A stretch of DNA of 64,000 bases, from the NCBI GenBank assembly GCA_965207735.1, contig OZ242296.1, positions 3,360,001-3,424,000 on the forward strand. The letters run 5' to 3'. How positions within the stretch are numbered: position 1 is the stretch's first letter; the number at the start of each line of letters is the position of its first letter. The translations under genes and the position numbers were made by a program. Below are positions 1 through 23,147 of the stretch, one piece after another. The notes below the pieces were generated by a model. That model searched no databases, had not been told where the DNA came from, and worked only from the letters and a program-made list of their open reading frames with translations. Source of the DNA: Candidatus Versatilivorator sp. GTDB lineage: Bacteria > Acidobacteriota > Terriglobia > Versatilivoradales > Versatilivoraceae.

Positions 1-1500
1 GACGAGATCGAGCGCATGCGGACCGAGTTCCTGGGACAGGTGAGCCACGAGCTGCGCGCGCCGCTGACCTCTATCCAGGGCTCGGCGGTCACGCTGCTCG
101 AGGAGACGGCCGACCTCGACCCCGCCGAGATGCGCGAATTCTTCCGCATCATCGCCGAGCAGGCCGGCCACATGCGCGGACTCATCCGCGACCTGCTCGA
201 CGCGGGGCGCATCGACTCGGGCACGCTCACGGTCACCCCCGAGCCCTCGGAGGTGGCCGCCCTGGTCGAGCGGTCGCGAAGCACGTTCGTGAGCGTCGCC
301 GGCCGGCACGCCGTCCTCGTCGACCTGCCGGCTGGGTTGCCCCCCGTGATGGCTGACCGCCGGCGCATCGTGCAGGTGCTCAACAACCTCTTGTCGAACG
401 CCGCGAGGCACGCGCCCGAGGCGACCCCGATCCGCGTCGTCGCCGTGCGCGAGGACGCACACGTCGCCGTCTCGGTCTTCGACGAGGGCAGCGGCGTGGC
501 GCCCGAGCGGTTGCCGCACCTGTTCAGCAAGCACGCCGGCGCCAGGCAGGGCGCGACGGCGGGCCAGGGACTCGGACTCGCCATCTCGAAGGGGCTCGTC
601 GAGGCGCACGGCGGCCGCATTCGGGCCGAGAGCCCCGGCCCCGGCCGCGGCACGACCGTCACCTTCACGCTGCCGGTGGCCGGGGAGGCCCGGGCCGGGG
701 CGCCTGGCCACGCCGCCGTCCCGCCGGCGCCCCCCGAAGCCGGGGAGCCGCCGCGCATCCTCGTGGTCGACGACGACCCGCGGATGCTGCGTTTCGTCCG
801 CGCCGCGCTCGCCGAGGCCGGCTACGCCCCGCTGGTCACGGGCGCGCCGCAGGACCTCCCGCGCATCATCCGCACCGAACGGCCGCGCCTCGTACTGCTC
901 GACCTGATGCTGCCCGACACCGACGGCATCGAGCTGATGCGGCAGGTCCCCGAGCTTGCCGATCTGCCCGTCATCTTCATCTCCGCCTACCGCCGGGACG
1001 AAACCGTCGCCAAGGCGCTCGAGTCGGGCGCGGCCGACTACATCGTCAAGCCCTTCTCGCCGACCGAACTGGTCGCCCGGGTCCGGGCGGCGCTCAGACG
1101 AAGCGAGGAGCCCGAGCCGTTCGTGGTCGGAAATCTCGCCATCGACTACGGGCAGCGGCGGGTGACGGTCGGCGGAGAGGCGGTCGAGCTCACCGTGACC
1201 GAGTACGAGCTGCTTCGCGTGCTCTCGCTCGACGCGGGACGCGTCGTGACCTTCGAGACGCTGCTGCGCCGGGTCTGGGCCAAGGACGAGATCACCGACG
1301 CGAACCTGGTGCGCAATTTCGTCAGGAACCTGCGCCGCAAGCTCGGCGACAGCGCGTCCAGCCCCGCCTACCTGTTCAACGAGCGCGGCGTCGGCTACCG
1401 CATGGCGAAGCCTCCGGGCCGCACTGCCGGATCGCCCCGGGTCTACTGGACCGATCACGTCCCGCGGAAGAGCGGGCGGCCCCATTTGCGCCACCCCTAG
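1..1500 (+). CDS. Hybrid sensor histidine kinase / receiver / OmpR-type winged-helix regulator in one polypeptide (5' end outside window)
   Basis: H-box SHELRAPLTSI, N-box QVLNNLLSNA, G-boxes DEGSG and GQGLGLAI, receiver ILVVDDD...LLDLMLP...KPF, wHTH LTVTEYELL...LRRKLGD...GVGY. Frame is open back to base 1. Confidence 0.9.
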   Translation, partial: DEIERMRTEFLGQVSHELRAPLTSIQGSAVTLLEETADLDPAEMREFFRIIAEQAGHMRGLIRDLLDAGRIDSGTLTVTPEPSEVAALVERSRSTFVSVAGRHAVLVDLPAGLPPVMADRRRIVQVLNNLLSNAARHAPEATPIRVVAVREDAHVAVSVFDEGSGVAPERLPHLFSKHAGARQGATAGQGLGLAISKGLVEAHGGRIRAESPGPGRGTTVTFTLPVAGEARAGAPGHAAVPPAPPEAGEPPRILVVDDDPRMLRFVRAALAEAGYAPLVTGAPQDLPRIIRTERPRLVLLDLMLPDTDGIELMRQVPELADLPVIFISAYRRDETVAKALESGAADYIVKPFSPTELVARVRAALRRSEEPEPFVVGNLAIDYGQRRVTVGGEAVELTVTEYELLRVLSLDAGRVVTFETLLRRVWAKDEITDANLVRNFVRNLRRKLGDSASSPAYLFNERGVGYRMAKPPGRTAGSPRVYWTDHVPRKSGRPHLRHP

Positions 1501-1502
1501 TG

Positions 1503-1586
1503 CCGGGAGCGACCCCTCCAAAACCGGCGGTTTCGCGGCGCAATAGGTGTTCCTCCGTTACACCCATCGCGCGGGGTCGCTCCCGG
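1503..1586. repeat. Long inverted repeat / hairpin (CCGGGAGCGACCCC ... GGGGTCGCTCCCGG)
   Basis: Perfect 14-bp arms at 1503-1516 and 1573-1586; core 12-mer recurs at 19390-19401. Confidence 0.75.
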
Positions 1587-1689
1587 TGAATTGTTCCCTC
1601 CGGGAAGGGTGCGGGCGTCGCAGTGCCTGCGTCCGCGGGGCCGTGACAGCCGGGCGCGGGCTACCGGGACCGAGCGTGCGACGACCGGT

Positions 1690-2075
1690 CGCGGCCCGGG
1701 CGACGCTTCGGTGGCACCCCAGGGCGTCGCGCACCATCTCCCGTTCGAGGTCCTCGCGGGCCTCGGCGGGCGTCGGGCGCCGGTCGGCGGCGGCGGACTT
1801 CCGGAAGGCAGACGGCAGGGCGTCCGGGCCGACGGGGCCGTAGCTCGGCCCGCTGATGGTGAGGTTGGCGAGCACGATCTGCAGCTCGCGGACGTTGCCG
1901 GGCCAGGAGTGCGCCGCAAGCGCCGTGACCGTCTCCCGCGCCAGGGCCGCGCGGCTGCCGGCCGCGGCCGCGATGCCCTTCAAGCAGTGGTCGGCGAGCC
2001 GGGCGACGTCCGGCCCGCGCTCGCGCAGCAGCGGGGCGGTGAGCGCGACGACGTTGAGGCGGTAGAGCAGGTCGC
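1690..2075 (-). pseudogene. Fragment of a sigma54-dependent (NtrC/Fis-family) transcriptional activator
   Basis: Reads DLLYRLNVV..LRERGPDV..HSWPGNVREL and start of Fis HTH (LEREMVRDAL..SVARAA). Walker A/B and GAFTGA region and the end of the HTH are missing. Confidence 0.8.
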
Positions 2076-2082
2076 ACCCTGA

Positions 2083-2118
2083 CCTGAAGAGCAGTATTCC
2101 GGTCCGAAGACCTTCAGG
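2083..2118 (-). terminator. Stem-loop just downstream of the adhesin stop (GGTC-TTCG-GACC inside CCTGAAG/CTTCAGG arms)
   Basis: UUCG tetraloop hairpin on the adhesin sense strand 20 nt after the stop. No U-tract, so terminator function is uncertain. Confidence 0.3.
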
Positions 2119-2137
2119 CGGATCGCATGCCCCACAC

Positions 2138-5100
2138 TCAGAAGTTCAGAACAAGACTGATGCCGATACGGTAGTCAGGGGAGCCGGACGGTCCGACCGA
2201 CAGGCCGGCAGCAGGATCCGGGCGACGACGGCGATAATCGCCGAACAACTCCAGCCGAAGACCATCGGCCACCATTTCGGATATCGACTTGGATGCACCC
2301 GAGACCTCCAGGCGCAGGCCACCTCCCAGGCGGGGGGAGTCCAAACCCTCCAGGTCCATCTTTGCAAAGGGTCCCAGCCGCCCGCGGCCACCCCAAGTTT
2401 CCAGTCTGTAGCTAAGGTCCGCCTGGGTGCGGTTGGGTCGCAAGTGCACGCCGGTCTGCTCTTCCGTTCGGTTGCGTCCGACCGGCATCTGCTCGCTTCT
2501 CCACAGGGCATCGGCGCCTCCCGAGGTATTCCCCCACAGTGGAGCCAGGGAGAAGCCCCATCCCTTGCCGTCAGCTCCCGGGTCCAGGCGGACCGTGAGG
2601 CGGGCGCCCCGCTCCCTGAAGTTCCGGTCCTGGTGAGCGATCAGCCAGTGTCCGCGGGCTTCCACCACCAGCCCCAGGCGCCGGTTGGCAAACGAGGCTC
2701 CACCGGCCAGCTCCGCCCCAATGCCCGTTTCGGCGTCGCCTCCGTCCATCCGGGCGCCCACCTCCAGACTGGGGGTCAGGCGGGAGTTGGAGGACAAGGT
2801 CCAGTCGGTGCGGCCCTCCAGCATCAGGCGCGCCCGCTGGGTGTGACCGTTGACCGCCTTGAGGCCCCCCACCGCCTCCGAGCCGACGCTCACGGCGAAG
2901 GCATCGGCCTTCAGCGCCAGATCGACGGCTCCCAGTCGTGTCAGGTCGCTGCGACCGCCCAAGGCCGCCAAGCGTACATCGATGCCCATCTCAACCGAGT
3001 CGCCTTCAACCTCCACCTCGGCGGCGCCCCGCCCATAGCCCATCAGACCCCACAGATCGAATCCCGGACGAGGCGACCATTTCAGATAGGGGAGCGCGCT
3101 GGTCAGCCGCGCCCCCACCTCCAGATCGTTCCCGCCGTTTCCCCCGTTCGCGAAATCCAGGACTCCAACGCTGTGAGAGGCGGCCAGGCCCACCAGCGCC
3201 TTTGCCCCCCAGCGGCGGTCCGCCCCCAGGTAGGCCGCGCCCACCCGGCCGTCCAATCCCATGTCCGGCTGAGGTTGACCGTGCAAGCTGCTGCGCACTC
3301 CCTGGCCCCACAGCATCCAGTTGCTTCCTTGAGAACCGTCCTTGTCCGGTGCAAACTGGAAGGAGCTGTTGGACATCAGATTCCGGCTTGAGAGGCGGTT
3401 GAAGCCGTTTCGACCGGTAGCAAGGGGAAGGGAACCGGCTCCAAACCCTCCTGCCCCGCTACCGCCGCTCAAGCCGCCGCCGGGGGATAGCTCTGTCTGC
3501 GTTTTGGCTTGCCGCCCGGCTACGTCCCACTGCCCGGGCACAGGCCGGCCTGCTGCAGGTGTTCTGGTGAGAGAATCGGACGCAATAGATTCCGTGCCCA
3601 GCAAACTCGCCGCGGTCTGCAACCACTCGGCAACCCGGCTCCGGCCTTGATCATCGGGTGCAGTCTCGACGTCGAGCCTACGCCCGCCGAAGTTGGCGCG
3701 GGATTCCCGAGACGACACCTCGAAACGGCCGCCGATCGCGTCCACCGCCTGACTAGCTACCGTCCGGCCAAAAACCGCCAGCGACAACTCCAGTAACCGG
3801 CTGCGCCGGTCTTGAACGGACTCGACCATTACTCCAAAGGACTGCTCTGCGCTCAAGCCCTCGGGGTCGCGCGCCGTTACCGTGATGCGGGTGGAGGCTA
3901 TGGCCACCGGCGTAAGCACCACCTCACTGCCCGACAGGTTAACTTCCACCGTGCTGCTTCCATCCGATGCCCGTGCGTCGTAGCTCAGCGGATCTCCGTC
4001 CGGGTCGGTGAAGTAGCTCGCTACATCCACCGTTCCGTCACTTCCCAACGTCAGCACTTGGTCCGGAATGGGTTCCCCTTCCGGCCCGGCGTTCAAACTA
4101 ATGACCATGATCTTCACCGTCGCAATATTGCTCGAGGCGCCGTGGCTGTCCCTTACCTGGTAGGTAAAGCGGTCCTCGTGAGACCCTCTGCTGCCGTCAT
4201 GCACGAAGGTGAAGGTTCCGTCCCTGTTCAGAGTCAAGTGGCCGTGGTCGGGGCTGGTGATCAACTCCACCGACAACTGGTCTAAACCATCCTCCAAGTC
4301 GCTATCGTTGGCCAACACGCTGGATTGCGGGAAGAAGTTGGACTGTGGCGACTGCAACTGGTCCCAGTCGTTGTTGGTGTCGTCAGGAGGTTCCTCTGTC
4401 CTGCCGGTTGGATATTCTTCGCGGTTCACGGCGTAGGCGGATTTGTACTCGTTCGACAGTAACGAGATCGTGCCTCCTCGGAGCACCGTGATACTGTCGT
4501 CCACCGCCACGGGAGCATGGTTCTTCCCGGTGTCGCCCCCGTTGTCGTTGGTGATGGTGCCGGTGGCTGGGCCGCCCGCCGTTACGCCCGAGGGGGCGTT
4601 CGACACGTTCAGGCTCACCGTGAAGGTCTCGTCGTCTTCCACTACCTCATCCTCGATAGTCTCCACCGTGAAGGTCTGCTCCTCGCCCGCCGTGCCGGTG
4701 AAGCCGAGCGCCGCCGTGTTCTCCGTGTAGTCCGTGCCCGCCACGGCTGTGCCGTCACTGAAACCGGGCGTCACCGCCAGACCTCCCTGCACAGCCTGGT
4801 TCAGCGTTACCGTGAAGGTCAGAGAATCGCCTTCCACCGCGCTCGCATTGGCGATCGTCACCGTCGGGGTGCCGCCGGTCGCGCCGTCGTCGTCGGAAAT
4901 CGTTCCCGTGGCGGGATCGCCGACCGTCACTCCTGAAGGAGCGTTCGACACGTTCAGGCTCACCGTGAAGGTCTCGTCGTCTTCCACTACCTCATCCTCG
5001 ATAGTCTCCACCGTGAAGGTCTGCTCCTCGCCCGCCGTGCCGGTGAAGCTGAGCGCCGCCGTGTTCTCCGTGTAGTCCGTGCCCGCCACGGCTGTGCCGT

Positions 5101-8100
5101 CACTGAAACCGGGCGTCACCGTCAGGCCGCCCTGCACAGCCTGGTTCAGCGTTACCGTGAAGGTCAGAGAATCGCCTTCCACCGCGCTCGCATTGGCGAT
5201 CGTCACCGTCGGGGTGCCGCCGGTCGCGCCGTCGTCGTCGGAAATCGTTCCCGTGGCGGGATCGCCGACCGTCACTCCTGAAGGAGCGTTCGACACGTTC
5301 AGGCTCACCGTGAAGGTCTCGTCGTCTTCCACTACCTCATCCTCGATAGTCTCCACCGTGAAGGTCTGCTCCTCGCCCGCCGTGCCGGTGAAGCTGAGCG
5401 CCGCCGTGTTCTCCGTGTAGTCCGTGCCCGCCACGGCTGTGCCGTCACTGAAACCGGGCGTCACCGCCAGACCTCCCTGCACAGCCTGGTTCAGCGTTAC
5501 CGTGAAGGTCAGAGAATCGCCTTCCACCGCGCTCGCATCGGCGATCGTCACCGTCGGGGTGCCGCCGGTCGCGCCGTCGTCGTCGGAAATCGTTCCCGTG
5601 GCGGGATCGCCGACCGTCACTCCTGAAGGAGCGTTCGACACGTTCAGGCTCACCGTGAAGGTCTCGTCGTCTTCCACTACCTCATCCTCGATAGTCTCCA
5701 CCGTGAAGGTCTGCTCCTCGCCCGCCGTGCCGGTGAAGCTGAGCGCCGCCGTGTTCTCCGTGTAGTCCGTGCCCGCCACGGCTGTGCCGTCACTGAAACC
5801 GGGCGTCACCGCCAGACCTCCCTGCACAGCCTGGTTCAGCGTTACCGTGAAGGTCAGAGAATCGCCTTCCACCGCGCTCGCATTGGCGATCGTCACCGTC
5901 GGGGTGCCGCCGGTCGCGCCGTCGTCGTCGGAAATCGTTCCCGTGGCGGGATCGCCGACCGTCACTCCTGAAGGAGCGTTGGACACGCTCAGGCTTACCG
6001 TGAAGGTTTCGTCCTCTTCCACCACTGTATCCTCGACGGTCTCCACCGTGATGGTTTGCTGCTCCCCGGCCGTGCCGGTGAAGCTCAAAGGAACCGGGTT
6101 GGCCGTGTAGTCGGTGCTCTCTGTGGCCGTGCCGTCGCTGAAGCTCGGCGTCACCGTCAGCCCGCCCTGCACCGCCTGGTTCAGCGTTACCGTGAAGGTC
6201 AGAGAATTGCCTTCCACCGCGCTCGCATTGGCGATCGTCACGGTGGCGTTGCCCCCGGTCGTGCCGCCGTCGTCATCGGTGATCGTGCCCGTAGCCGTAT
6301 CGGTTGCCGTCACTGTAGTCGAGGCCCCGGAGACGGCCAGGCTGACGGTGAAGGTCTCGTCCGCTTCCACTACTGCATCCTCGACAGTCTCCACCGTGAT
6401 GGTTTGCTGCTCCCCGGCCGTGCCGGTGAAGCTCAAAGGAACCGGGTCGGCCGTGTAGTCGGTGCTCTCTGTGGCGGTGCCGTCGCTGAAGCTTGGGGTC
6501 ACCGTCAGCCCGCCCTGCACTACCTGATTCAGCGTTACCGTGAAGGTCATCGGATCGCCCTCGTCGGTCGATGCGTCGGCCACCGTCACGGCCGGCTCGG
6601 CGCCATCGTCGTCAGAAATGGTGCCTGTAGCGGGATCTCCCACCGTCACCCCTGAGGGAGCGTTCGACACGCTCAGGCTCACGGTGAACGTCTCCTCGGT
6701 TTCCGCCGCCGCATCCTCGACGGTCTCCACCACGATGGTTTGCGTCTCTCCAAGCGTGCCGACAAAACTCAATGCCTCCACGTTCGCCGTGTAGTCGCTG
6801 TCCGCGACCGCCGTGCCGTCAGCAAAGCTCGGCGTCACCGTCAGCCCACCCTGGACCGCCCGGTTCAGCGTTACCGTGAAGGTCAGAGAATCGCCTTCCA
6901 CCGCGCTCGCATTGGCAATCGTCACGGTGGCGTTGTTCCCGGTCGTACCGCCGTCGTCGTCGGTAATCGTTCCTGTTGCGGGATCGCCGACCGTCACCCC
7001 AGAGGGAGCGTCCGACACGCTCAGGCTCACGGTGAAGGTCTCGTCCTCCTCCACCACCGCATCCTCGGTGGTCGCCACCGTGATGGTCTGCTCCTCGCCC
7101 GTCGTCCCAGTGAAGCTGAGGGCTGCCGTGTTCTCGGTGTAGTCCGTACCCCCCGTCGCCGTGTCGTCCGTGAAGCTTGGTGTCACCGTCAGACCACCCT
7201 GTACTGCCAGGTTCAAGGTCACCCTGAAGGTCAGCGATTCCCCTTCCGCGGCGCTCGCACTCGCGATCGTCACCACGGCGGTCCCACGGCTCGGCAGGCC
7301 GTCGTCGTTGGTGATCGTCCCCGTGGCCGTATCCGTCGCCCTCACCGTCGTCGAGGTGTCGGAGACGTTCAGGCTCACGGTGAAGGTCTCGTCCTCCTCC
7401 ACCACCCTATCCTCGGTCGTCGTGACCGTGAAGCTCTGCGTCTCACCTGCCGTGCCGGTGAAGCCGAGCGCCGCCGTGTTCTCCGTGTAGTCCGTCCCTT
7501 CGGCCGCCGTCCCGTCGGCGAAGCCCGGCGTCACCGTCAGGCCCCCCGACACGGCCTTGTCCAGCGTCACGGTGAACGTCAGCGAGTCGCCTTCGCTGGC
7601 CGACGCGTCGCCAATCGTCACGGCCGCCAGCGCACCATCGTCGTTCGTGATCGTCCCCGTGGCGGTGTCGGTCGCCGTCACCGTCGCCTGCGTCCCCGAG
7701 ACGGTCAGGTTGACAGTAAACGTCTCGTCGTTCTCTGCGTCGGAATCTTCGGTCGTCGCCACGGTAAAGGTCTGCGTCTCGCCCGCTGTGCCCGTGAAGG
7801 TGAGAGCGGTTGTGTTCTCGGTGTAGTCGGTGCCCTCCGTCGCGGTCTCGTCGGTGAAGGCAGGCGTCACCGTCAATCCGCCGGACACCGCCTTGTCGAG
7901 GGTCACGGTGAACGTGATCTGGTCGCCCTCGGCGGCCGACGCGTCCTCGATGGTGACGGCGGGAACGGCGCCGTCGTCGTTGGTGATGGTGCCGGTGGCG
8001 GTGTCGGTCGCCGCTACCGGCGACTGTGTCCCGGAAACGGTCAGGTCGACGGTGAAGGTCTCGTCGAGCTCTGCGTCGGTGTCTTCGGTCGTCGCCACGG

Positions 8101-14100: not shown

Positions 14101-17100
14101 TGGACTGTCCGGCCGGAATCCGGGGGGCGTCCGGCAGTGGCGTTCCTCGTACGGCGCCGTCCGAATAGGACAGCCCGGGCGGCAGATTCTCCAGCGTCAG
14201 CGTCAACGTGTCGCCGTCGGCATCGCTTACGGGGATGGTCCACGGCTCAAGCGGCTGGTACTGGAAAGCGCGGATTCCATCTAGCTCCCCGATCACTGGC
14301 GGCGAGTTCGGTCCCTCGGGCTCTGACGGCTCCGGCGCTGCGGTGTCGAGGATCGTCCCCGTCGCCGTGTCGGTCGCCTTCACCCACAACGACGTGTTGG
14401 TGAGGCTCAAGCCCACCGTGAACGTCTTGCTCGATGTGTCCTGCTGGTCAGCGGTCGTCGCCACGGTGAAGGTCTTCTGCTCGCCCGCGTTGCCGGCGAA
14501 GGTGAGCGCCGCGGTGTTCTGGGTGTAGTCCGTGCCGCTCGCCGCCGTGCCGTCGGTAAAGCTCGGCGTCACGGTGAAGCCGCCGACGACCGCTCTGTCC
14601 ACCGTCGCGGTGAAGGTGATCGCGTTCCCCTCCCTGGCTGACGCGTCAGAGATTGTCACGGCTGCGCCGTCGTCGTCGGTGATCGTCACCGTCCCGGTGT
14701 CGGTCGCCGTCACCCCCGGCGGCGCGCCGGATACTTCGAAGCCGACGGTGAAGGTCTCCGTCCCCTCGACGATCTCGTCGTTGACGGTATTGAACGATAG
14801 GTCACGGCTCTCGTTGGGCCAGCCGCCGAAGGGGAGCTGAATAGGGATGCCGCGGAAGTCGCTGTCCTTGGTGGCGGTGCCGTTGGTGACTACCGTTTTC
14901 AGGAGGAGGCCGCCCTGCACCCCCTTGTCGATCCTCACACTGAAGGCCATGGGCACCAACGACGTGTAGGTCTCCACCCCGGTTGCGTCATCGACCGTCA
15001 CGGTCGCGAAGTCGTCGTTGGTAACCGTGCCGGTCGCCGTATCGGTTGCCGTTACGGTCTCCGACGTCCCGGAGACGGCCAGGCTCACCGTGAACGTCTC
15101 GTCGTATTCCACCACCTCGTCCTCGGTGGTGGCCACCGTGAAGGTGCGCTGCTCGCCCGCCGTCCCGGTGAAGCTGATGCCCGCCGTGTTCGCGGTGTAG
15201 TCGGTACCCTTCGCGGCCTTCCCGCCACTGAAGGAGGGCGTCACGGTGAAGCCGCCCGACACCGCCTTGTTCAGCGTCACCGTGAACGTGAGCGAGTCGC
15301 CCTCGCCGGCCGATGCGTCGGTGACCGTCACGGACGTCGTCCCGTCGTCGTCGATGATCGTCCCCGTCGCCGGATCGGTCGCCTTCATCGGCTCCGTCGT
15401 CCCGGAGACGCTCAGACTGACGGTGAAGGTCTCATGGGCTTCCACGGCCGCATCCTCGGTCGTGGCCACGGTGAAGGTCTGCGTCTCGCCCGCCGTGCCG
15501 GCGAAGCTGATCCCCGCCGTGTTCGCGGTGTAGTCCGTGCCCTTGGTGGCGGTGCCGCCGGCGAAGCCGGGCGTCACGGTGAAGCCGCCCGACACCGCCT
15601 TGTCCAGCGCCACCGTGAACGTGATCTGGTCGCCCTCGGAGGCAGATGCGTCAGCCACGGTCAGGGCGGGAGCATCCAGGTCGGCCTGCACGCTGCATGG
15701 CTGCGCCGCCAGGTTGCCGTAACCGTCATTGTCCGTAGCCACGTTCGCTGGAACGCCAATCGTCACCGTCCCGCTGGCTGCCGGCGTGATGTAGACCGAG
15801 GCGGTTCCATTCGTTTCGGCCCACCCGGTCACCCGTCCGTTGTCCACCGTCACGTCGGCCCGCGCGAACCCGGACACCGACTCCGAAAACTTGATGCTCA
15901 ACCCGAATGTGTCCGTCTGCACACCGGTCGGACAACTGATGGTCACCGTCGGCTCACCCAAGTTGGCCTGCACTGAATACTGGACCGCCGCCAAGTTGCC
16001 GTTGTTATCGCCATCCGTGGCCACATTCTCCGCCACGTCCACCGTCACCGTCCCGCTGGCCGCCGGCGTGATGTAGACCGTGGCGTTTCCATTCGTCTCG
16101 GCCCACCCGGTCACCCGTCCGTTGCCCACCGTCACGTCCGCCTGCGCGAACCCAGACACCGACTCCGAGAAGGTGATCGTCACTTGGAACGCGCCCGCCT
16201 GCGCACTCGTCGGACCACTGATGACCACCGTCGGCTGCGCCAGAGCCACGGTCACGCTGAATCGGCTCGCCGCCGTGTTGCTGTGGCCCGCTCCATCCAC
16301 GGCCACGCCCGCGGCCACATCCACCGTCAGCGTCCCGCTGGCCGTCGGCGTGATCGTGGCCGTATAGCTCGACCCCGAACCGGAAAGCGCCGCCGCGGCC
16401 CCGCCGCCGACCGTCACGTCTCCTTTATCGAACCCGGTCACCGACTCCGAGAAGGTGATCGTCACGTCGAAGGAGTCGCTCTGGCTGGCCGTCGGGCCAC
16501 TGATGCTCACCGTCGGAGCATCGAAGTCAGCCTCCACCGAATATTGGGGCGCCGCCACGTTACCGTACTCCACCCCGTCCTCGACTACGTTCTCCGCTAC
16601 GTCCACCGTCACCGTTCCCGTGGCCGCCGGCGTGATCGTGGCCGACCAGGTATCGTACGAGCCGGAAAAATTGGTCATCGACCCGTTGCCGACCGTCACA
16701 TCTCCCTGCGTGAACCCGTACACCTCCTCCGAAAAGACGATCCTGACGAGAAACGCCCCTTTCTGAGTAGTGGTCGGACCCGTGATGTCCACCGTCGGAC
16801 GATTCCAATGCGGCTCGACCGTGATCGTGAACGTCTCCGTCACCGCCGTGTTCACGCCGTCATCGGCCGAGACCGTCACGGTGTGGTCCTGTATTGCCGC
16901 GTTGACCGCCACGATCCCCTGCACCTGGCCGCTCGCGTACGACAGCCCCGAGGGCAGGCCGGTCAGCGTCACCGTCACCGTGTCCTGGTCTGCATCCGTC
17001 ACCGTGATCCCGAACGCCGTGATGCTCTCCCCCTGCTCGTAGCTCTTGTCGCCCGGTGTGGTGATCACCGGAGCGGAGTTGACCGTCTGCCTCGCCCGAG

Positions 17101-18442
17101 CCGGCTTGGTCACCGTGATCGTGAACGTCTCCGTCACCGCCGCGTTGACCCCGTCGTCCGCCGAGATCGTCACGGTGTGGTCCTGCGCCGCCGCGTCGCC
17201 CGCCACCGTTCCCTGCACCTGGCCGCTCGTGTACGACAGCCCCGACGGCAGGCCGGAGAGCTCCACCGTCACCGTATCCTCGTCGGCATCCGTCACCGTG
17301 ATCCCGAACGAGGTGATCGTCTCGCCCTGCTCGTAGGTCTTGTCGCCGGGCGCGGTAATCACCGGCGCCGCGTTCGACGCCGCCTCCGCCTGCACCGAAT
17401 GCCGGCTCGCCGGCATGTTGGGGTTGCCCGTTGCATCCGTTGCCCTGTGCGCGGCCACGTCAACCGTCACGGTCCCGGCGTCCGCCGGCGCGATCGTCGC
17501 CGTGTAGCTCCGCCCCGAACCGGAAAAGGCCGTCACCGACCCGTTGCCCACTGTCAGGTCCCCCTGCTCGAATCCCGTCATCGATTCCGTGAAGGTGAAG
17601 GTCACGTCAAACGGTCCAGTCTGGAGTCCCGTCGGGCCACTGATGGTCACCGTGGGACGAGTCTGGTCCCCCTCCACCGAAAACCGGCTCGCCGCCGTGT
17701 TGCCGTTGTCATCCGCATCCGCAGCCACGTTCGCGCCCACGTCCACCGTCACCGTTCCGGAGAACCCCGGAGTGATCCTGATCTTGGCTCTATAGCTGGC
17801 TCCCGAACCGGAAAACTCCCTGACGAATCCATTGCCCACCGCCACGTCCGCCTTCTCGAACCCCGTCACCGGCTCGGAGAAGGCGATGCGCACGTCGAAC
17901 GCGCCTCTCTGGGGCGCCGTCGGGCCGCTGATGGTCACCGTTGGAGAGGTTTGATCCGCTGGAGGGGTTTGATCCGCCTCGCTCACCGTGATCGTGAACG
18001 TCTCCGTCACCGCCGCGTTCACCCCGTCGTCCGCCGAAATCGTCGCGGTGTAAGCCTGCGCCGTGGCACCGGCGGCTACCGTCCCCTGAACCTGGTCGCT
18101 GGTGTAGGACAGCCCCGACGGCAGCCCCGTCACCGTTACCGTTACCGTGTCCCCGTCCGCGTCCGACACCATGATCCCGAACGAAGTGATCGTCTCTCCC
18201 TGCTCGTAGGACTCGTCTCCAGGAGACGTGATCACCGGCGGAGCGTTGGCCGGGGCCGATTGCCCTAATGCCGACCCAACAGACAGGATGGCATTCATCG
18301 CGACGACAGCGACGGCCAGGAGGGGGATGGCCGCCTTGGCCAAGGCATGGCAAGCCCCGGAGAGCTTGCCATAAGCTAACAGGTTGGGCGGCTGTGCGGA
18401 GGGTGATGAGATTCCATCGAGCATTGGCGGAAACCCTTTCAC
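2138..18442 (-). CDS. Giant (5434 aa) repetitive surface adhesin with Calx-beta, putative-Ig (He_PIG-like), bacterial Ig-like and cadherin-like domains and a C-terminal autotransporter-like beta-barrel
   Basis: N-terminal hydrophobic signal. By my count ~27 Calx-beta repeats (ADASA.EGD.LTFTVTL..ATEGTDY..DETFTV..ATGTI.DDD), 7 He_PIG-like (GLPSGLSY..GQVQGT) and 9 Ig-like (PTVTISGP..FSE.V.GF) units, then NHAPVAVDD cadherin-like domains, a helical linker FGRTVASQAVDAI, and amphipathic strands ending YRIGISLVLNF. Confidence 0.9.
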   Translation of the reverse strand: MKGFPPMLDGISSPSAQPPNLLAYGKLSGACHALAKAAIPLLAVAVVAMNAILSVGSALGQSAPANAPPVITSPGDESYEQGETITSFGIMVSDADGDTVTVTVTGLPSGLSYTSDQVQGTVAAGATAQAYTATISADDGVNAAVTETFTITVSEADQTPPADQTSPTVTISGPTAPQRGAFDVRIAFSEPVTGFEKADVAVGNGFVREFSGSGASYRAKIRITPGFSGTVTVDVGANVAADADDNGNTAASRFSVEGDQTRPTVTISGPTGLQTGPFDVTFTFTESMTGFEQGDLTVGNGSVTAFSGSGRSYTATIAPADAGTVTVDVAAHRATDATGNPNMPASRHSVQAEAASNAAPVITAPGDKTYEQGETITSFGITVTDADEDTVTVELSGLPSGLSYTSGQVQGTVAGDAAAQDHTVTISADDGVNAAVTETFTITVTKPARARQTVNSAPVITTPGDKSYEQGESITAFGITVTDADQDTVTVTLTGLPSGLSYASGQVQGIVAVNAAIQDHTVTVSADDGVNTAVTETFTITVEPHWNRPTVDITGPTTTQKGAFLVRIVFSEEVYGFTQGDVTVGNGSMTNFSGSYDTWSATITPAATGTVTVDVAENVVEDGVEYGNVAAPQYSVEADFDAPTVSISGPTASQSDSFDVTITFSESVTGFDKGDVTVGGGAAAALSGSGSSYTATITPTASGTLTVDVAAGVAVDGAGHSNTAASRFSVTVALAQPTVVISGPTSAQAGAFQVTITFSESVSGFAQADVTVGNGRVTGWAETNGNATVYITPAASGTVTVDVAENVATDGDNNGNLAAVQYSVQANLGEPTVTISCPTGVQTDTFGLSIKFSESVSGFARADVTVDNGRVTGWAETNGTASVYITPAASGTVTIGVPANVATDNDGYGNLAAQPCSVQADLDAPALTVADASASEGDQITFTVALDKAVSGGFTVTPGFAGGTATKGTDYTANTAGISFAGTAGETQTFTVATTEDAAVEAHETFTVSLSVSGTTEPMKATDPATGTIIDDDGTTSVTVTDASAGEGDSLTFTVTLNKAVSGGFTVTPSFSGGKAAKGTDYTANTAGISFTGTAGEQRTFTVATTEDEVVEYDETFTVSLAVSGTSETVTATDTATGTVTNDDFATVTVDDATGVETYTSLVPMAFSVRIDKGVQGGLLLKTVVTNGTATKDSDFRGIPIQLPFGGWPNESRDLSFNTVNDEIVEGTETFTVGFEVSGAPPGVTATDTGTVTITDDDGAAVTISDASAREGNAITFTATVDRAVVGGFTVTPSFTDGTAASGTDYTQNTAALTFAGNAGEQKTFTVATTADQQDTSSKTFTVGLSLTNTSLWVKATDTATGTILDTAAPEPSEPEGPNSPPVIGELDGIRAFQYQPLEPWTIPVSDADGDTLTLTLENLPPGLSYSDGAVRGTPLPDAPRIPAGQSKFWYVTIKADDGVAATVTRIFQYTVYWGAPEITVPGDKTYEQGEAIAPFAIQVTDPSSTTVTVTGLPTGLSYASGQVQGTVAADADVKAYTVKITADGRGYPAVTETFTITVTPPGAPKVTIEDVSADEGDSISFTVTLSRAVSGGLTVTPSFTDVTAAKGTDYTENTAALSFAGTAGEQQTFTVATTEDADIEADETFTVSLAVSGTSETVTASDTATGTITNDDAPALTIADASASEGESMTFTVTLDAAVSGQFLVDLSFTDGTATEGTDYTAYEEALEFAGTAGEQQTFTMVTTEDTDVEAHETFTVSLSVSGTQLAVTASDTARGTIIDDDGATAVTVADASAGEGDSLTFTVTLNKAVSGGLTVTPSFTDVTAAKGTDYTENTAALSFAGTAGEQQTFTVATTEDADIEADETFTVSLAVSGTSETVTASDTATGTITNDDAPALTIADASASEGESMTFTVTLDAAVSGQFLVDLSFTDGTATEGTDYTAYEEALEFAGTAGEQQTFTMATIEDTDVEVNETFTVSLRASGTSETITASDTATGTIIDDDGATAVTVADASAGEGDSLTFTVTLNKAVAGGFTVTPSFTDVTAAKGTDYTENTAALSFAGTAGEQQTFTVATTEDADVEADETFTVSLAVSAPTETITASDTATGTIINDDDPATVTIADASASEGDSMTFTVTLDSAVAVGFIVTPSFTDVTARSGVDYTQNTTAITFAGTAGETRTFTVATTEDAYQEADETFTVGLSVSGASLSVRATDTATGTILDDGDTTTNSPPVIKPLNIRHYDFQYQTILPWCIKVHDDDGDEVTVTVTGLPQGLSHSDSDSCSGGTVSGTVMPNTHRIPARRDNAFIVKINADDGVNAVVTHSFNYFVMWGRPHITSPGDKTYQQGEQIAAFDIVVDADEKYKEVELTGLPDSLSYESASEQVTGTVDANAEIKDYTVTITADGDGPGWLSPVTDTFTITVISSRPDVQVSGPADAQNGAFDVTITFTESVTGFEKGDVTVGNGTATALSGSGSSYTATITPTASGTVTVDVDENVAEDGASNGNTAASRYSVEADLDAPTVSITGPTASQSDSFDVTITFTESVTGFEQEEVTVGNGAATALTGSGASYTATITPTASGTLTVDVDENVAEDGAGNGNTAADQFTVPVDLTRPTVVISCPTVTQTGAFDVGIAFSESVTGFEQAEATVGNGTVTALTGSGASYTATITPAATGTLTVDVAENVAADGEGHGNLAAQRCRVQVNLDDPKLTIFDESASEGDSMTFTVTLDKDVSGGFTVTPSFIDVTATKGTDYTENTAALSFKGTAGEEQTFTVATIEDAANEPDETFTVGLSVSGTSLAVTDTEIATGTITDDDVLQRTGVTIADGIAAEGDSLTFTMTLNNAVSGGFTVTPSFTDVTATKGTDYTENTAALSFKGTAGEQQTLTVATIDDADPEPNEVLEMSLSVSGTTAKVTVEDVKGLIIDDDAPAVTVDDASAAEGDSITFTVTLDNAVSGGLTVTPSFTDGTATEGTDYTENTAALTFTGTADETQSFTVATTEDTGVESDETFTVSLTVSGTSETVRATDIARGTITNDDGEAALTIADASAEEGDSITFTVTLDKAVSGGLAVTPVFTDETATEGTDYTENTDALTFTGTAGEEQTFTVATTEDTEGESDETFTVSLTVSGTSATVASDTAIGTVTDDDHMGHSPAVVTVADASADEGDAITFTVTLDKAVSGGLTVTPSFTDGTATKGTDYTENTAAITFAGSTGETQTFTVATTEDTEGESDETFTVGLAVSGLSGPETVTATDTATGTIVDDELPALSIADASASEGDSLTFTVTLDKAVSGGLTVTPSFTDGTATKGTDYTENTAAVTFAGSTGETQTFTVATTEDADAELDETFTVDLTVTTTQTPVAATDTATGTITNDDGTVAAVTIEDASAAEGDQITFTVTLDKAVSGGLTVTPAFTDETATEGTDYTENTAALTFTGTAGETQTFTVATTEDTDAELDETFTVDLTVSGTQSPVAATDTATGTITNDDGAVPAVTIEDASAAEGDQITFTVTLDKAVSGGLTVTPAFTDETATEGTDYTENTTALTFTGTAGETQTFTVATTEDSDAENDETFTVNLTVSGTQATVTATDTATGTITNDDGALAAVTIGDASASEGDSLTFTVTLDKAVSGGLTVTPGFADGTAAEGTDYTENTAALGFTGTAGETQSFTVTTTEDRVVEEDETFTVSLNVSDTSTTVRATDTATGTITNDDGLPSRGTAVVTIASASAAEGESLTFRVTLNLAVQGGLTVTPSFTDDTATGGTDYTENTAALSFTGTTGEEQTITVATTEDAVVEEDETFTVSLSVSDAPSGVTVGDPATGTITDDDGGTTGNNATVTIANASAVEGDSLTFTVTLNRAVQGGLTVTPSFADGTAVADSDYTANVEALSFVGTLGETQTIVVETVEDAAAETEETFTVSLSVSNAPSGVTVGDPATGTISDDDGAEPAVTVADASTDEGDPMTFTVTLNQVVQGGLTVTPSFSDGTATESTDYTADPVPLSFTGTAGEQQTITVETVEDAVVEADETFTVSLAVSGASTTVTATDTATGTITDDDGGTTGGNATVTIANASAVEGNSLTFTVTLNQAVQGGLTVTPSFSDGTATESTDYTANPVPLSFTGTAGEQQTITVETVEDTVVEEDETFTVSLSVSNAPSGVTVGDPATGTISDDDGATGGTPTVTIANASAVEGDSLTFTVTLNQAVQGGLAVTPGFSDGTAVAGTDYTENTAALSFTGTAGEEQTFTVETIEDEVVEDDETFTVSLNVSNAPSGVTVGDPATGTISDDDGATGGTPTVTIADASAVEGDSLTFTVTLNQAVQGGLAVTPGFSDGTAVAGTDYTENTAALSFTGTAGEEQTFTVETIEDEVVEDDETFTVSLNVSNAPSGVTVGDPATGTISDDDGATGGTPTVTIANASAVEGDSLTFTVTLNQAVQGGLTVTPGFSDGTAVAGTDYTENTAALSFTGTAGEEQTFTVETIEDEVVEDDETFTVSLNVSNAPSGVTVGDPATGTISDDDGATGGTPTVTIANASAVEGDSLTFTVTLNQAVQGGLAVTPGFSDGTAVAGTDYTENTAALGFTGTAGEEQTFTVETIEDEVVEDDETFTVSLNVSNAPSGVTAGGPATGTITNDNGGDTGKNHAPVAVDDSITVLRGGTISLLSNEYKSAYAVNREEYPTGRTEEPPDDTNNDWDQLQSPQSNFFPQSSVLANDSDLEDGLDQLSVELITSPDHGHLTLNRDGTFTFVHDGSRGSHEDRFTYQVRDSHGASSNIATVKIMVISLNAGPEGEPIPDQVLTLGSDGTVDVASYFTDPDGDPLSYDARASDGSSTVEVNLSGSEVVLTPVAIASTRITVTARDPEGLSAEQSFGVMVESVQDRRSRLLELSLAVFGRTVASQAVDAIGGRFEVSSRESRANFGGRRLDVETAPDDQGRSRVAEWLQTAASLLGTESIASDSLTRTPAAGRPVPGQWDVAGRQAKTQTELSPGGGLSGGSGAGGFGAGSLPLATGRNGFNRLSSRNLMSNSSFQFAPDKDGSQGSNWMLWGQGVRSSLHGQPQPDMGLDGRVGAAYLGADRRWGAKALVGLAASHSVGVLDFANGGNGGNDLEVGARLTSALPYLKWSPRPGFDLWGLMGYGRGAAEVEVEGDSVEMGIDVRLAALGGRSDLTRLGAVDLALKADAFAVSVGSEAVGGLKAVNGHTQRARLMLEGRTDWTLSSNSRLTPSLEVGARMDGGDAETGIGAELAGGASFANRRLGLVVEARGHWLIAHQDRNFRERGARLTVRLDPGADGKGWGFSLAPLWGNTSGGADALWRSEQMPVGRNRTEEQTGVHLRPNRTQADLSYRLETWGGRGRLGPFAKMDLEGLDSPRLGGGLRLEVSGASKSISEMVADGLRLELFGDYRRRRPDPAAGLSVGPSGSPDYRIGISLVLNF
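4596..5975 (-). repeat. Four near-identical 345-bp tandem Calx-beta coding repeats
   Basis: Same sequence recurs at about 4596, 4941, 5286 and 5631; shadow ORFs start at 4734/5079/5424/5769 (345-bp period). Confidence 0.9.
12158..13680 (-). repeat. 663-bp period duplication (two-domain Calx-beta unit) inside adhesin
   Basis: CGAGACGGCCAGGCTGACGGTAAAGGTTTCGTCCGCCTCGA recurs near 12158, 12821 and 13484. Confidence 0.85.
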
Positions 18443-18498
18443 AATGGATGAATGTGGCCCTTGCGGCCGGAAGGCATGGCATGCCCATCACCACCAAG

Positions 18499-18515
18499 TG
18501 CAATTCCCGTGCCAA
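18499..18515 (-). promoter_or_regulatory. Sigma54 (-24/-12) promoter of the giant adhesin
   Basis: Minus strand TTGGCACGGGAATTGCA matches the consensus TGGCACG-N4-TTGCA, ~57 nt upstream of the GTG start, preceded by an AT-rich tract. Confidence 0.85.
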
Positions 18516-18593
18516 AGTAAAAAAAATTAAGTAAGTCCTTTTAAGGAAGCCACTTTGGATGTCGTGACCGCACAATGCTCAACTGACGCGAGC

Positions 18594-18723
18594 GTCTCAA
18601 CATGAGACTGTGATTCAACGACCTCGACGGCCTCTGTGGAAACAAGCCGCATGATTTCAGCTAGTTATAGGGAATTGGCAGGGGAGCGAGTCTCAATACT
18701 AAACCCAAGTCTCATCTTGAGAT
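18594..18723. promoter_or_regulatory. Putative enhancer (UAS) palindromes GTCTCA-N3-TGAGAY
   Basis: GTCTCA-ACA-TGAGAC at 18594-18608, GTCTCA-TCT-TGAGAT at 18709-18723, half-site at 18690. They lie ~80-210 bp upstream of the sigma54 site. Confidence 0.55.
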
Positions 18724-18888
18724 ACTCGACGAGGCAGGAATCGACGGTAAAGAGAGACTCGACCAGCAGGAAAGGCTGGCAGGCTTGGCCAACTTGGTGA
18801 GCCGATATTGAAAATGGGGGGTTTCGACAGCGCGGTGATCCATGACAGGCTGCCGAAAAAAATCGGGGTTGTAGGGTATATGCCGATT

Positions 18889-18911
18889 CAAATTGTGCAG
18901 ACAATTTGCCA
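18889..18911 (-). promoter_or_regulatory. Palindromic operator CAAATTGT-N4-ACAATTTG overlapping a weaker sigma54-like site
   Basis: Perfect 8-bp inverted repeat at 18889-18908; minus strand TGGCAAATTGTCTGCA keeps the GG-N10-GC spacing. Confidence 0.4.
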
Positions 18912-19384
18912 GACCCATGGTGTGTGCTATGAAGGCCGGGTGCCTACCCCTCCCGCGAATCCTGAATCACCCTTCCCTTGCCGACAGACGTGGCCATGTC
19001 ACTTTTTTGGCGCGTTGTATTGTGAGCAACCACACTGTTCCCCGCAGACGCGGCGATGAATCGGGGCAAGAAACGAACTCACTCGATGACCGTGGAATGA
19101 TCGACGATTTCCGTCTCTGGGGGTCAAGCAGATGCCGTCGTATGGGTGAAACGGCTGCAACGTAGCGATGTTCACCCAGCCGTTTCATGATTTCCACACC
19201 CACAACGCCATTCTCTCAGAGAGCGGAGCCCTCGCCGTTGTGGTTGGCGACTTTCCCCAAACACCGCGTCAGACACGGGACAACAAGGATTGCCCGTATC
19301 GGATGAGACAAGGCGAAGCAAGGCTGCGCCTCGCGCGTCCCCCTCCCGCCCGGCGCGGCGGCGCGCCGCACGAGAGGGGAGAAG

Positions 19385-19496
19385 GTGGAGGGAGCGACCC
19401 CCATATTTTTTGCCGCTGGTGCGGCATCGGGGAGGGTTAGCCGTTTCACTTCACAGTTCACGGTTAACCCTCCCCTTGGGGGGTCGCGCCCTCCAC
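19385..19496. repeat. Nested long hairpin element downstream of integrase remnant
   Basis: Outer stem 19385-19402/19479-19496 (1 mismatch), inner stem 19429-19444/19460-19475, side hairpin 19411-19426. Confidence 0.75.
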
Positions 19497-19609
19497 AGTG
19501 ATCCCTTCGGGAAGGTTAAAATGGAGATCTGGAGCCAGGTCATTCCAGTTAACCTGGCCTTGACGGCCGTGGGCCTGCGGGTGTGGCTCGATCCTTGGGC
19601 GAGGTTTCC

Positions 19610-19790
19610 TTACGGGACCTGGTGCGGGCAGCCCATTCCTTGGGCCAGGTAACGCGCCCAGTCGTCCATCAGGACACGCCTGCGCTCGAACAGGTCGGAG
19701 CGGGCATAGGCCGCCTCGACCCGATTGCGGACCACATGCGCCAGGGCCGCCTTGATCACCTCCCGGGGATGGTCGGTCTCTTCGGGCGCA
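19610..19790 (-). pseudogene. C-terminal remnant of P4-like tyrosine integrase
   Basis: EETDHPREVIKAALAHVVRNRVEAAYARSDLFERRRVLMDDWARYL contains the box II His and catalytic Tyr of phage integrases; the N-terminal part is absent. Confidence 0.85.
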
Positions 19791-19827
19791 CTGTCACTTC
19801 GTGGACTGACAGCCGCCGGAGGGGTCC

Positions 19828-22800: not shown

Positions 22801-23052
22801 GACGTTGGGGTCGGACGGAGCCACCGCCAGGGCGCCGACGGAGGAGGTGTTGAAGAAGCCGTCGGAGACGTTTTCCCAGTAGGTGCCGCCGTCGGTGGTT
22901 TTCCAGACTCCACCGGCCACGGCTCCAAAGTAGGCGGTCATGGGGTCCACCGGGTCGCCGGCCACGGCCACCACCCGGCCGCCGCGGGGCGGGCCGATGC
23001 AGCGCCACTGGAGGTCCTGCAAGAAGCTGGGATCGTAGGGGGGGATGCTCAT
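19828..23052 (-). CDS. BNR/Asp-box repeat glycosyl hydrolase-like protein (VPS10/sortilin-like beta-propeller)
   Basis: WRCIGPPRGGR start, many S.DGG.TW Asp-boxes, GTHGRSFWILDD. Likely ATG at 23052 after GAAGGGAG. Confidence 0.85.
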   Translation of the reverse strand: MSIPPYDPSFLQDLQWRCIGPPRGGRVVAVAGDPVDPMTAYFGAVAGGVWKTTDGGTYWENVSDGFFNTSSVGALAVAPSDPNVIYAGTGETTIRLDVSYGDGVYKSTDAGKTWTHMGLEETRHIGEIRVHPNDPDLVYAAALGHAFGPNPERGVYRSRDGGRNWEKVLYRSPKAGAVDLAMDPNNPRLLYASIWETYRNFWSLSSGGPDSGLFKSTDGGDTWTEISDNQGLPKGIKGKIGVAVSPAQADRVWAIVESEEEGLYRSDDGGQQWQRVSDNRDLIHRPWYYCHVFADPCHADTVYVTNLKMWKSTDGGCRFEQVTTPHGDNHDLWIDPSDPRHLVQGNDGGACISFNGGRSWSTIYNQLTSQLYRMDIDNQFPYRVYATQQDNASICVPSATEYGAVAWGHCYSPGTGESGFIAVHPENPDIVYLGAIGSSPGGNGVMQRYDRKTGQIRLVNVWPEESTGWAPKDLKYRFAWTYPIAISPHDPNVLYAGGNILFRSLDEGGSWEAISPDLSRNDPGKLEASGGPVTKDASGAEGYATLSTFVESKHERGVFWAGTDDGLVHLSRDGGGHWDNITPPDLPEWSYVGCLEVSPHDPASAYVSATRYKLDDYRPFLYKTEDYGRSWRSIAGDFPKDQITRVVRADPLRGGLLFVGTETGVFVTFDDGEHWQPLRSNLPVVPVYDLKIKDSDLVAGTHGRSFWILDDLTPLRRLDPEASGAAAGLFPPRPTYRTRLNWSVNMFADKGKNYMLGLGGNACYYQDETPEGESVRRFLDAGQNPPPGVIVYYWLAEAPGEPISLTFLDADGREIKTFTSKPAESEDAGGGEASPKADRYLTARPGLNRFVWDMHYADAEKVEERGKDQSTLFGTREKSGNGPLAPPGPYGVRLTAGGRTCTESFEILKDPRVEATPEDFQAQFEFWTRIRDKLTETNRAINRTRRLQEQLAEWSKRTEKVNQGDARGASPVSEKAKALRDRLDSIEKALIQTKDKTPFDRLRYPNRLNAKLGGLVAVVGIADAAPPKQAYEVFDDICAQIDVQIARLRELCQGEAASFNQLARDAGFAPLDIE

Positions 23053-23147
23053 GTACGTGGCTCCCTTCTGAGGACGGGCGACCCGCATGGCCGCGGTGCC
23101 GCCGGATGCATGACGGGAGTCATTATATATCCGCTGCCCTGTCAGTG

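Follow-up and report, generated by a model that had tools for sequence, protein, structure and literature searches.

A strain-specific island bounded by a repeat-targeting integrase element, with a giant predicted adhesin and its putative sigma54 switch as probable cargo

How does the gene for a giant predicted adhesin come to lie beside the broken gene of an integrase, and did the one bring the other? We considered this question for a window of 64,000 nucleotides from a Candidatus Versatilivorator sp. genome (G000:C1:3360001-3424000), which is a single contig of 5.26 Mb without N and with 61.9% GC; a negative number denotes a position left of the window (genome position minus 3,360,000). A preliminary description had proposed that the first 19.8 kb of the window are an integrative element specialised for carrying giant adhesins with their own signalling. 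That stretch proves to be strain-specific and integrase-derived, but the island extends left to about -8240, for ~28 kb in all, and two things coincide at the locus: a repeat-targeting variant of P4-type islands and a portable adhesin cassette. The island is bounded by a right attachment site (attR) and the integrase stub of a multi-copy family that inserts into repeats resembling repetitive extragenic palindromic (REP) sequences. In the reading that we consider probable, a kinase, an activator and the giant predicted adhesin likely form one cassette, which likely arrived as cargo and was then locked in place by loss of the left attachment site (attL).

The extent of the island is set by its flanks. 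A BNR-repeat glycosyl-hydrolase-like gene on its right has an ortholog in 13/13 same-genus genomes, and in all 13 the downstream neighbour of this gene is a radical-SAM gene that here ends near -8450; since the two are adjacent in every relative, the island measures ~28 kb (-8238 to 19795, the in-window part being 1..19795 on the minus strand). The distance between the two genes is below 1 kb in 10 of the 13 relatives, and the other three carry unrelated inserts of ~13 kb (G002), ~7 kb (G006) and ~5 kb (G004). Because these inserts occupy the same gap, the site is a hotspot. The island itself is absent from all 13 genomes, where the orthologous site beside the BNR gene is empty or differently filled, so that the adhesin and its regulators, which might have been syntenic core genes, are missing from this place in the relatives. 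The boundary features are as follows.

genome 3351762-3351770 (-8238 to -8230): attR core inside a REP-like repeat, left island boundary, left of the window
about genome 3351771-3352850: element backbone, left of the window
1500..1620 (-): further copy of the element backbone hairpin, recognised by sequence, inside a block 87% identical to part of a sister element
19035..19610: element backbone with the tail of a 331-aa gene, variable direct repeats and hairpins, 89% identical to a sister element
19610..19795 (-): type-1 integrase, last 60 codons, attL absent
19828..23088 (-): BNR-repeat glycosyl-hydrolase-like gene, core right flank

The G002 insert at this site (L010:7929-19428) holds SNF2 helicase, unknown open reading frame (ORF), DndB-like, radical-SAM-like and HATPase genes, a defence-like cluster standing where the adhesin island stands here.

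Multi-copy repeats make up both ends of the island and several of its internal joints, and at such repeats a metagenome assembly may have joined unrelated pieces. We regard such an artefact as extremely improbable: the genome is a single contig without N, and the two flanking genes lie side by side in every relative. Run X1, a separate assembly that may stem from the source sample, has an identical contig across the integrase-BNR junction, and other contigs span the kinase-activator and promoter-backbone joins. The BNR contigs of runs X7 and X8 diverge from the reference at 19827.

The integrase C-terminus (coding part 19613-19795) had been recognised correctly. It is up to 95% identical to the C-terminus of intact copies, and the domains of an intact sister (Arm-DNA-bind_3, which we take to be equivalent to DUF4102, Phage_int_M and Phage_integrase) give the IntSXT/P4-subgroup architecture. 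As a unique landmark of an island end it does not hold up: stub and hairpins are a dispersed repeat, with 64 tblastn matches to the stub in the genome and 79 to the full integrase, 20 of them full length by our cut-off. The element family comprises 23 intervals that total 385 kb, or 7.3% of the genome. Because the stub lacks ~370 codons at its start, and with them the first catalytic Arg and the HxxR motif, and attL is absent as well, the island copy is likely immobile, and its excision appears unlikely even with help in trans.

Mapping of the element ends gave 22 left-end and 25 right-end rows, two of the latter not being clean ends. Type-1 attL sites (n=15) read TGCTGYCGCCGCC, some with one or two changes, followed by element DNA, and type-1 attR sites (n=16) read element DNA followed by GTCGCCGCCTWCGCGGCT, with the same junction in 16/16. 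In the family, attL and attR have a short core in common, of which the empty site has one copy. For 15 of the 16 attR sites there is a partner attL on the same strand at a distance of 2-44 kb; the remaining one is that of the island, which retains attR only and has, on the same strand and 28.0 kb off, just the integrase stub. The unoccupied type-1 repeat core occurs in 86 copies at no more than one mismatch, compared with none in three shuffles, and these target repeats are REP-like: short, abundant, intergenic and palindromic, with doublets visible. The genome also has one weak Y1_Tnp match, a candidate for a RAYT-type transposase. In an empty-site test of six elements, two have an orthologous left flank in G002 that contains the uninterrupted core. 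Across the relatives, 11/11 left and 9/9 right junctions conform to the type-1 pattern, the left ones leaning towards conformity because they were picked from alignments that included the core, whereas the right-end query contained only one base of it. None of the mapped ends lies within 3 kb of a tRNA gene (0/22 attL and 0/25 attR rows; 0/47), so a tRNA target is ruled out and the targets are intergenic repeats. Among the 50 tRNA genes called, the cores matched once, over 7 bp in a tRNA-Leu, and not in tRNA-Arg. A split integrase, with the attachment site inside the gene, was also rejected, as in intact copies neither end falls within the gene.

The target repeat differs from one integrase clade to another. 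A tree was built from 27 integrase sequences, of which 21 could be assigned a left end. Each of types 2, 3 and 4 occupies a single starred branch, and type 1 has one branch, which it shares with two 5'-truncated copies. Some of this clustering is expected, the labels being partly element-side sequence, but the repeat on the host side is also different (13 unoccupied type-2 sites). The type-4 target is read from only four left ends and a by-eye likeness to the backbone hairpin, and a pattern search of the genome for empty type-4 targets gave no match. This fourth clade (~62% identical; G000:C1:636510, 1013993, 1124506 and 2498876), whose left ends resemble the elements' own backbone hairpin, looks as if it inserts into other elements.

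Several other features of the family were observed. Four near-minimal elements of 2.1-2.4 kb (G000:C1:1087279-1089369, 4406544-4408634, 5151281-5153371 and 3236912-3239330) have both ends and an identical internal integrase deletion, and these non-autonomous copies seem to have spread after the deletion. A 331-aa backbone protein of type-2/3 elements (L059:1933-2925 and four paralogs) has no Pfam or NCBIfam family, and its atlas neighbours are unnamed Acidobacteriota clusters; variable direct repeats beside the 3' end of its gene look like binding sites. Two small contigs of one relative, G005:C1 (L137) and G005:C2, repeat element ends of C3:1.66-1.69 Mb and may be alternative haplotypes or free forms. 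A search of 400 further genomes of the phylum, with only two candidates scored per genome, gave no type-1 left-end DNA. A metagenome scan for the integrase gave nine loci, of which one is a close copy with the type-1 junction and four are more distant, with upstream sequence but without the junction.

The preliminary description had also called a 1.1-kb non-coding region next to the integrase hairpin-rich. This applies to 19035-19610, which is more structured than chance (z -6.56; 0/100 shuffles equally stable) and whose repeats and hairpins are possibly a candidate origin, but not to 18520-19035, the adhesin promoter, which has no excess structure over shuffles (z -0.08). Similarly, the start of the window is GC-rich as reported (72-74% over 1-2000 vs 61.9% genome-wide), but the block continues left of the window together with a kinase-regulator fusion gene, and over 2.7 kb it is 87% identical to part of the sister element 3164881-3184461.

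How this family relates to known systems can be judged from its shared and divergent features. P4-type integrases are textbook single-site enzymes. The family resembles IntSXT/P4 islands in its three integrase domains, the integrase at one end, a short shared core and accessory cargo, and differs in its dispersed, clade-specific repeat targets, its tRNA-free ends and its ~23 coexisting elements. REP-targeting insertion sequences (ISs; IS1397, IS621 and ISPpu10) likewise use a many-copy intergenic palindrome as a safe landing site, but these are compact and have DDE or IS110-type enzymes, unlike the arm-binding tyrosine integrase and 2-44 kb elements found here. With integrative mobilisable or hitcher elements the family has in common an integrase, a hairpin-rich non-coding backbone, defence cargo and no transfer machinery found, yet its backbone holds no recognised relaxase or replication family. 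In the sections of PMC8138268 that treat them, IntSXT/P4-subgroup integrase clusters insert beside a conserved gene (tRNA, guaA or prfC), and Tn916-type integrases target AT-rich DNA without strict sequence. Like the latter, the present family has a tyrosine integrase with many insertion sites per genome, but its junction is sequence-fixed in a GC-rich repeat. Our literature search found no description of a REP-targeting tyrosine integrase, of Calx-beta autotransporters of sponge symbionts or of a sigma54 giant-adhesin cassette, nor the genus name together with sponge; a paper on precise island mapping reportedly discusses site-promiscuous integrase clades and may bear on the novelty of these elements.

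If the island were one of a class of elements dedicated to giant adhesins, its sisters should resemble it in cargo. We scanned 192 of 225 predicted ORFs of 22 sister elements, most integrases and nine ORFs straddling locus edges having been excluded. They include type III, MmeI, type ISP and Mrr restriction genes, an OLD-type nuclease and HEPN genes, as well as eight ankyrin, two Sel1 and two leucine-rich-repeat proteins, magnesium transporters and many IS genes; many have no Pfam family, and Calx-beta, Big_12, He_PIG and Autotransporter domains occur in 0/192. Giant genes with the barrel of this adhesin or a GDGA-type C-terminus lie inside elements in 1/22 cases (1.6 expected; p 0.80), and a broader, hand-picked set of giant surface genes in 3/34 (2.4 expected; p 0.45). 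Here the adhesin does lie inside an integrase-bounded island, but this lack of enrichment, together with the integrase-free adhesin regions and activator loci of other genomes, largely refutes a dedicated adhesin element, which we now hold to be very unlikely; the mixed sister cargo speaks against it as well. The cargo classes match those transferred in sponge symbionts: in the relevant portions of PMC8163846, adhesion, ankyrin-type and restriction genes move between lineages, potentially via mobile elements, and such classes are described there and in parts of PMC10947273 as enriched and laterally transferred.

One sister element (5052428-5071872) has a cluster at L059:4255-10674 that resembles an Ssp phosphorothioation system and is made up of genes for Aminotransferase V and DUF4007 proteins, a large unknown ORF and a PAPS-reductase gene. 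Elsewhere in the genome, 18 ORFs of 1300-4845 aa encode giant surface proteins that share a GDGA-containing C-terminal domain without a barrel, several of them head-to-head with kinase-REC-wHTH (winged helix-turn-helix) fusions.

What, then, does this island carry? Its main cargo features are listed here.

genome 3353078-3354985 (-): sigma54 activator, 635 aa, REC-AAA+(GAFTGA)-Fis helix-turn-helix (HTH), left of the window
genome 3355069-3358227 (-): multi-PAS histidine kinase, 1052 aa, left of the window
2138..18442 (-): giant surface protein, autotransporter-like, 5434 aa when counted from GTG, with ATG 18424 as the likely start
2141..3433 (-): C-terminal beta-barrel region, ~18 strands in the model, the first 12 aligning to type Va autotransporter barrels
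18499..18514 (-): sigma54 -24/-12 promoter element, also before orthologous adhesins
18594-18608, 18690-18704 and 18709-18723: three enhancer-like dyads, at the same offsets in orthologous promoters and with symmetric base changes

The 5434-aa autotransporter-like ORF described earlier is present. Its product has He_PIG, Big_12, Calx-beta and Big_9/cadherin-like domains (Pfam-type families), with ~7 PIG, 9 Big_12 and 28 Calx-beta repeats by pattern count, and consists of 17% Thr, 14% Asp plus Glu and 3.5% Lys plus Arg; these domain families suggest adhesion and calcium binding. By eye, the N-terminus is signal-peptide-like and a helical linker precedes the C-terminal barrel, which ends in Phe. 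A model of the last 431 residues, built with 92 sequences, has ~18 strands at a predicted local distance difference test (pLDDT) score of 83.7, whereas the single-sequence fold is of low confidence (pLDDT 29.5); the strand count of the former exceeds the 12 of a type Va barrel. Autotransporter barrels align to model residues 36-283, over 12 strands at root-mean-square deviations (rmsd) of 4.2-5.1 (BrkA: Z 15.5, rmsd 4.6, model 39-281), the fold search ranks the porin CymA highest (Z 17.0, rmsd 4.5, 257 aligned), and TonB-dependent barrels cover the whole model at lower Z. The model thus suggests an enlarged relative of the autotransporter barrel. A search of solved structures with the adhesin alignment returned only Calx-beta chains and nothing for the barrel, and the adhesin has no Pfam Autotransporter hit; 7 of 120 listed homologs have one. 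Like type Va autotransporters (BrkA, AIDA-I, EspP and NalP), the protein combines a signal-peptide-like start, a long passenger, a linker helix and a barrel ending in an aromatic residue; unlike them, it has about six further strands in the model and an Ig/Calx-beta rather than a beta-helix passenger. The giant repeat adhesins LapA, BapA and SiiE are comparable, Lap/Bap adhesins using type I secretion.

The sigma54 promoter at 18499-18514 had likewise been identified correctly and is one of only two matches to the strict consensus TGGCAC-N5-TTGCW in 5.26 Mb. The element, exact or with one change, precedes 10/10 cassette adhesins inspected (including that of the window) and is missing before a G001 barrel gene that has no activator. 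Upstream, dyads of the form RTYKCA-N3-TGMRAY lie ~92, 186 and 205 bases away in 5/9 aligned promoters and are shifted or fewer in 4/9; the consensus was drawn from these same promoters, but the fixed offsets and symmetric changes were not. It has 11 perfect matches genome-wide, two of them in the adhesin promoter. In the window and in L107, a Gly precedes the recognition-helix Arg of the activator and the half-sites read TGAGA, compared with Asn and TGCGA in four others; a pairing of helix and dyad variants is suggestive only.

Which protein acts at this promoter is a separate question, for which the preliminary description had two candidates at the start of the window.

1..1500 (+): 3' part of a GAF-PAS-HisKA-HATPase-REC-wHTH sensor-regulator, 834 aa, starting 1005 bases left of the window (-1004); 72% GC
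1561..2082 (-): sigma54 activator stub, 5'-truncated, AAA lid only, 77% GC, 39% identical to the island's intact activator

Both genes exist, though the former starts at -1004 and includes GAF and PAS domains beyond the kinase, REC and wHTH parts first noted. Opening of a sigma54 promoter requires an AAA+ activator. The fusion has an OmpR-type wHTH and no AAA+ domain, and the stub, which is unrelated to the intact activator, has only the lid; because neither has an intact AAA+ domain, neither is likely to be the regulator of this promoter. The idea of an adhesin with its own signalling nonetheless stands in another form, with the kinase and activator left of the window, which co-occur with the adhesin. 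In favour of a fusion-regulated dedicated element, 7 of the 9 near-full copies of the fusion in this genome have a giant surface gene no more than 3 kb away (0.8 expected; 0/5000 permutations), and the fusion stands beside the cassette in 4/13 GTDB loci and in G008; against this, it is not beside the cassette in G004, G005 or G001, only 2/9 copies lie inside elements (p 0.18), and it lacks the AAA+ domain needed at a sigma54 promoter. The fusion, present in 13/14 genomes and head-to-head with the kinase in L108 and L109 as in the window, is a frequent neighbour that likely regulates a sigma70-type neighbour rather than the adhesin promoter.

The conserved unit consists of the multi-PAS kinase, the sigma54 activator, the enhancer dyads, the sigma54 promoter and the autotransporter-like adhesin. 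The activator has the REC Asp, Walker A/B and GAFTGA motifs and a Fis HTH, the kinase features are present, and rpoN is in the genome. As in NtrB/NtrC, ZraS/ZraR and AtoS/AtoC, a PAS kinase and a REC-AAA+-Fis HTH activator stand together with upstream dyads and a -24/-12 promoter, but this activator falls below the cut-off of the AtoC, NtrC and ZraR models, and it is accessory and moves with a single giant output gene. Barrel homologs occur in 13/13 same-genus genomes and 0/17 others searched, with close ones (53-77%) in five, and the activator in 7/14 genomes in eight copies. Each of the seven copies that could be assessed lies next to a barrel adhesin, six of them on the promoter side, with co-directional orientation in G002, G005 and twice in G008 and divergent orientation in G004 and G001. 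The cassette sits at a different core site in each relative. A GTDB scan for the activator gave 13 loci, eight at 72% identity or more and five at 52-66%. In the former group two loci stop at contig edges, and the other six, whose flank is long enough, all have the adhesin (6/6); three of these six repeat DNA already counted, and the three new ones come from records titled Latescibacterota, Bryobacterales and another Terriglobia. Among named records, those nearest to the island's activator (81-83% identity) bear the titles Candidatus Versatilivorator, Terriglobia and Acidobacteria, and together with the ankyrin-rich gene content they suggest a sponge-associated lineage. The unit is a portable adhesin cassette, probably sigma54-switched, that is built of known parts.

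Two relatives carry striking variants of the unit. In G002 (G002:C1:2222785-2255200; L031-L033), the adhesin ortholog is an open frame of 10,805 aa with the same kinase-activator-promoter arrangement, and in G008 (G008:C1:3428600-3468600; L038-L040) two tandem kinase-activator-adhesin copies (5032 and 4797 aa) are followed by a kinase-REC-wHTH fusion.

Did the integrase bring the cassette here? The expected co-occurrence of adhesin and integrase is not found elsewhere, there being no integrase match in 5/5 adhesin regions of relatives (40-100 kb each) or, within available flank, in 13/13 GTDB activator loci; the G008 region has a backbone hairpin fragment at its edge, and short attR-like pieces lie 13 kb (G005) and 30 kb (G004) from the cassette, beyond core DNA. 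Gene order runs fusion, kinase, activator, promoter, adhesin in the relatives and promoter, adhesin, fusion, kinase, activator in the window, with element backbone at both ends. The latter is a circular permutation of the former and would fit passage through a circle, as it would fit tandem duplication and loss, or accretion. The promoter-backbone join is shared by run X3, from another study, and not by X8.

Accretion in place supposes that a small repeat-targeting element integrated here first and decayed, and that the adhesin, the GC-rich block and the kinase-activator pair joined it later in separate events, whether by IS activity, by tandem duplication and deletion or by recombination through the shared backbone, the integrase never having moved the adhesin. 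The hotspot with its unrelated inserts suits this account, as do the 87% identity of the GC-rich block to part of another element, tandem copies of the G008 kind, which could yield the permuted order, the near-identical promoter contig of run X8, which departs from the reference at 18940, ahead of the backbone, and the integrase-free cassettes of relatives. Yet all the cargo lies between one attR and a stub of the same strand and type, sister elements of 20-44 kb with both ends intact show such loads to be normal, and the promoter-backbone join recurs in X3. We therefore judge accretion unlikely, though it keeps appreciable weight, and return to arrival as cargo as the probable course.

Several observations weigh against arrival as cargo or against parts of it. 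The three backbone copies inside the island and the block of 72-77% GC fit stepwise accretion equally. Four of the six elements in the empty-site test (E2, E5, E16 and E22) were uninformative, the relatives' sites being without the repeat or differing in it, and in E7, one of the two informative cases, the empty site has one repeat unit fewer than the two flanks imply. An excised circle (attP) was not seen, and the Pfam hits of the 192 scanned cargo ORFs, many of which have no family, include no conjugation or capsid family. For the cassette, the helix-dyad pairing rests on two versus four related sequences, and the five activator loci at 52-66% identity (Poribacteria and Binatia) have the kinase but no adhesin-domain match within available flank.

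If the cassette did arrive as cargo, an intact integrase would have recombined the 7-9 bp core of an excised circle with any of ~90 chromosomal repeat copies, a site-specific enzyme thereby acting as a multi-site one. Passage through a circle opened between activator and promoter would give the permuted order, and the activator would still work in trans. The membrane multi-PAS kinase would phosphorylate the activator, which would bind the three dyads ~90-210 bp upstream and open the sigma54 promoter. The adhesin would be exported by Sec and its barrel inserted by the beta-barrel assembly machinery (BAM). The Calx-beta/Ig stalk, acidic, rich in Thr and probably made stiffer by calcium, would be displayed to attach to host matrix or to other cells.

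A wider proposal, which we advance as a tentative possibility, is that this tyrosine-integrase lineage abandoned single-gene targets, repeatedly retargets among dispersed, REP-like landing pads and is a main vehicle for sponge-symbiont defence, eukaryote-like-repeat and adhesion genes. One of its loads would then be an adhesin switch that is self-contained, crosses phyla and still works after permutation, with a kinase, a sigma54 activator, an enhancer code to match and an autotransporter with an enlarged, ~18-strand barrel. These 385 kb would escape programs that seek islands at tRNA genes. The four closely related clades (62-95% identical) with different repeat cores are a natural series for studying integrase target choice, and the elements carry gene classes reported as moving between sponge symbionts. 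The cassette suggests that a surface protein of very high cost can come together with a switch of its own that is off by default, and the barrel may be a larger relative of the autotransporter barrel.

Outside the island, a 357-aa ORF at 44816-45889 of the window is AT-rich (49-56% GC) amid core genes and is likely a separate small acquisition.

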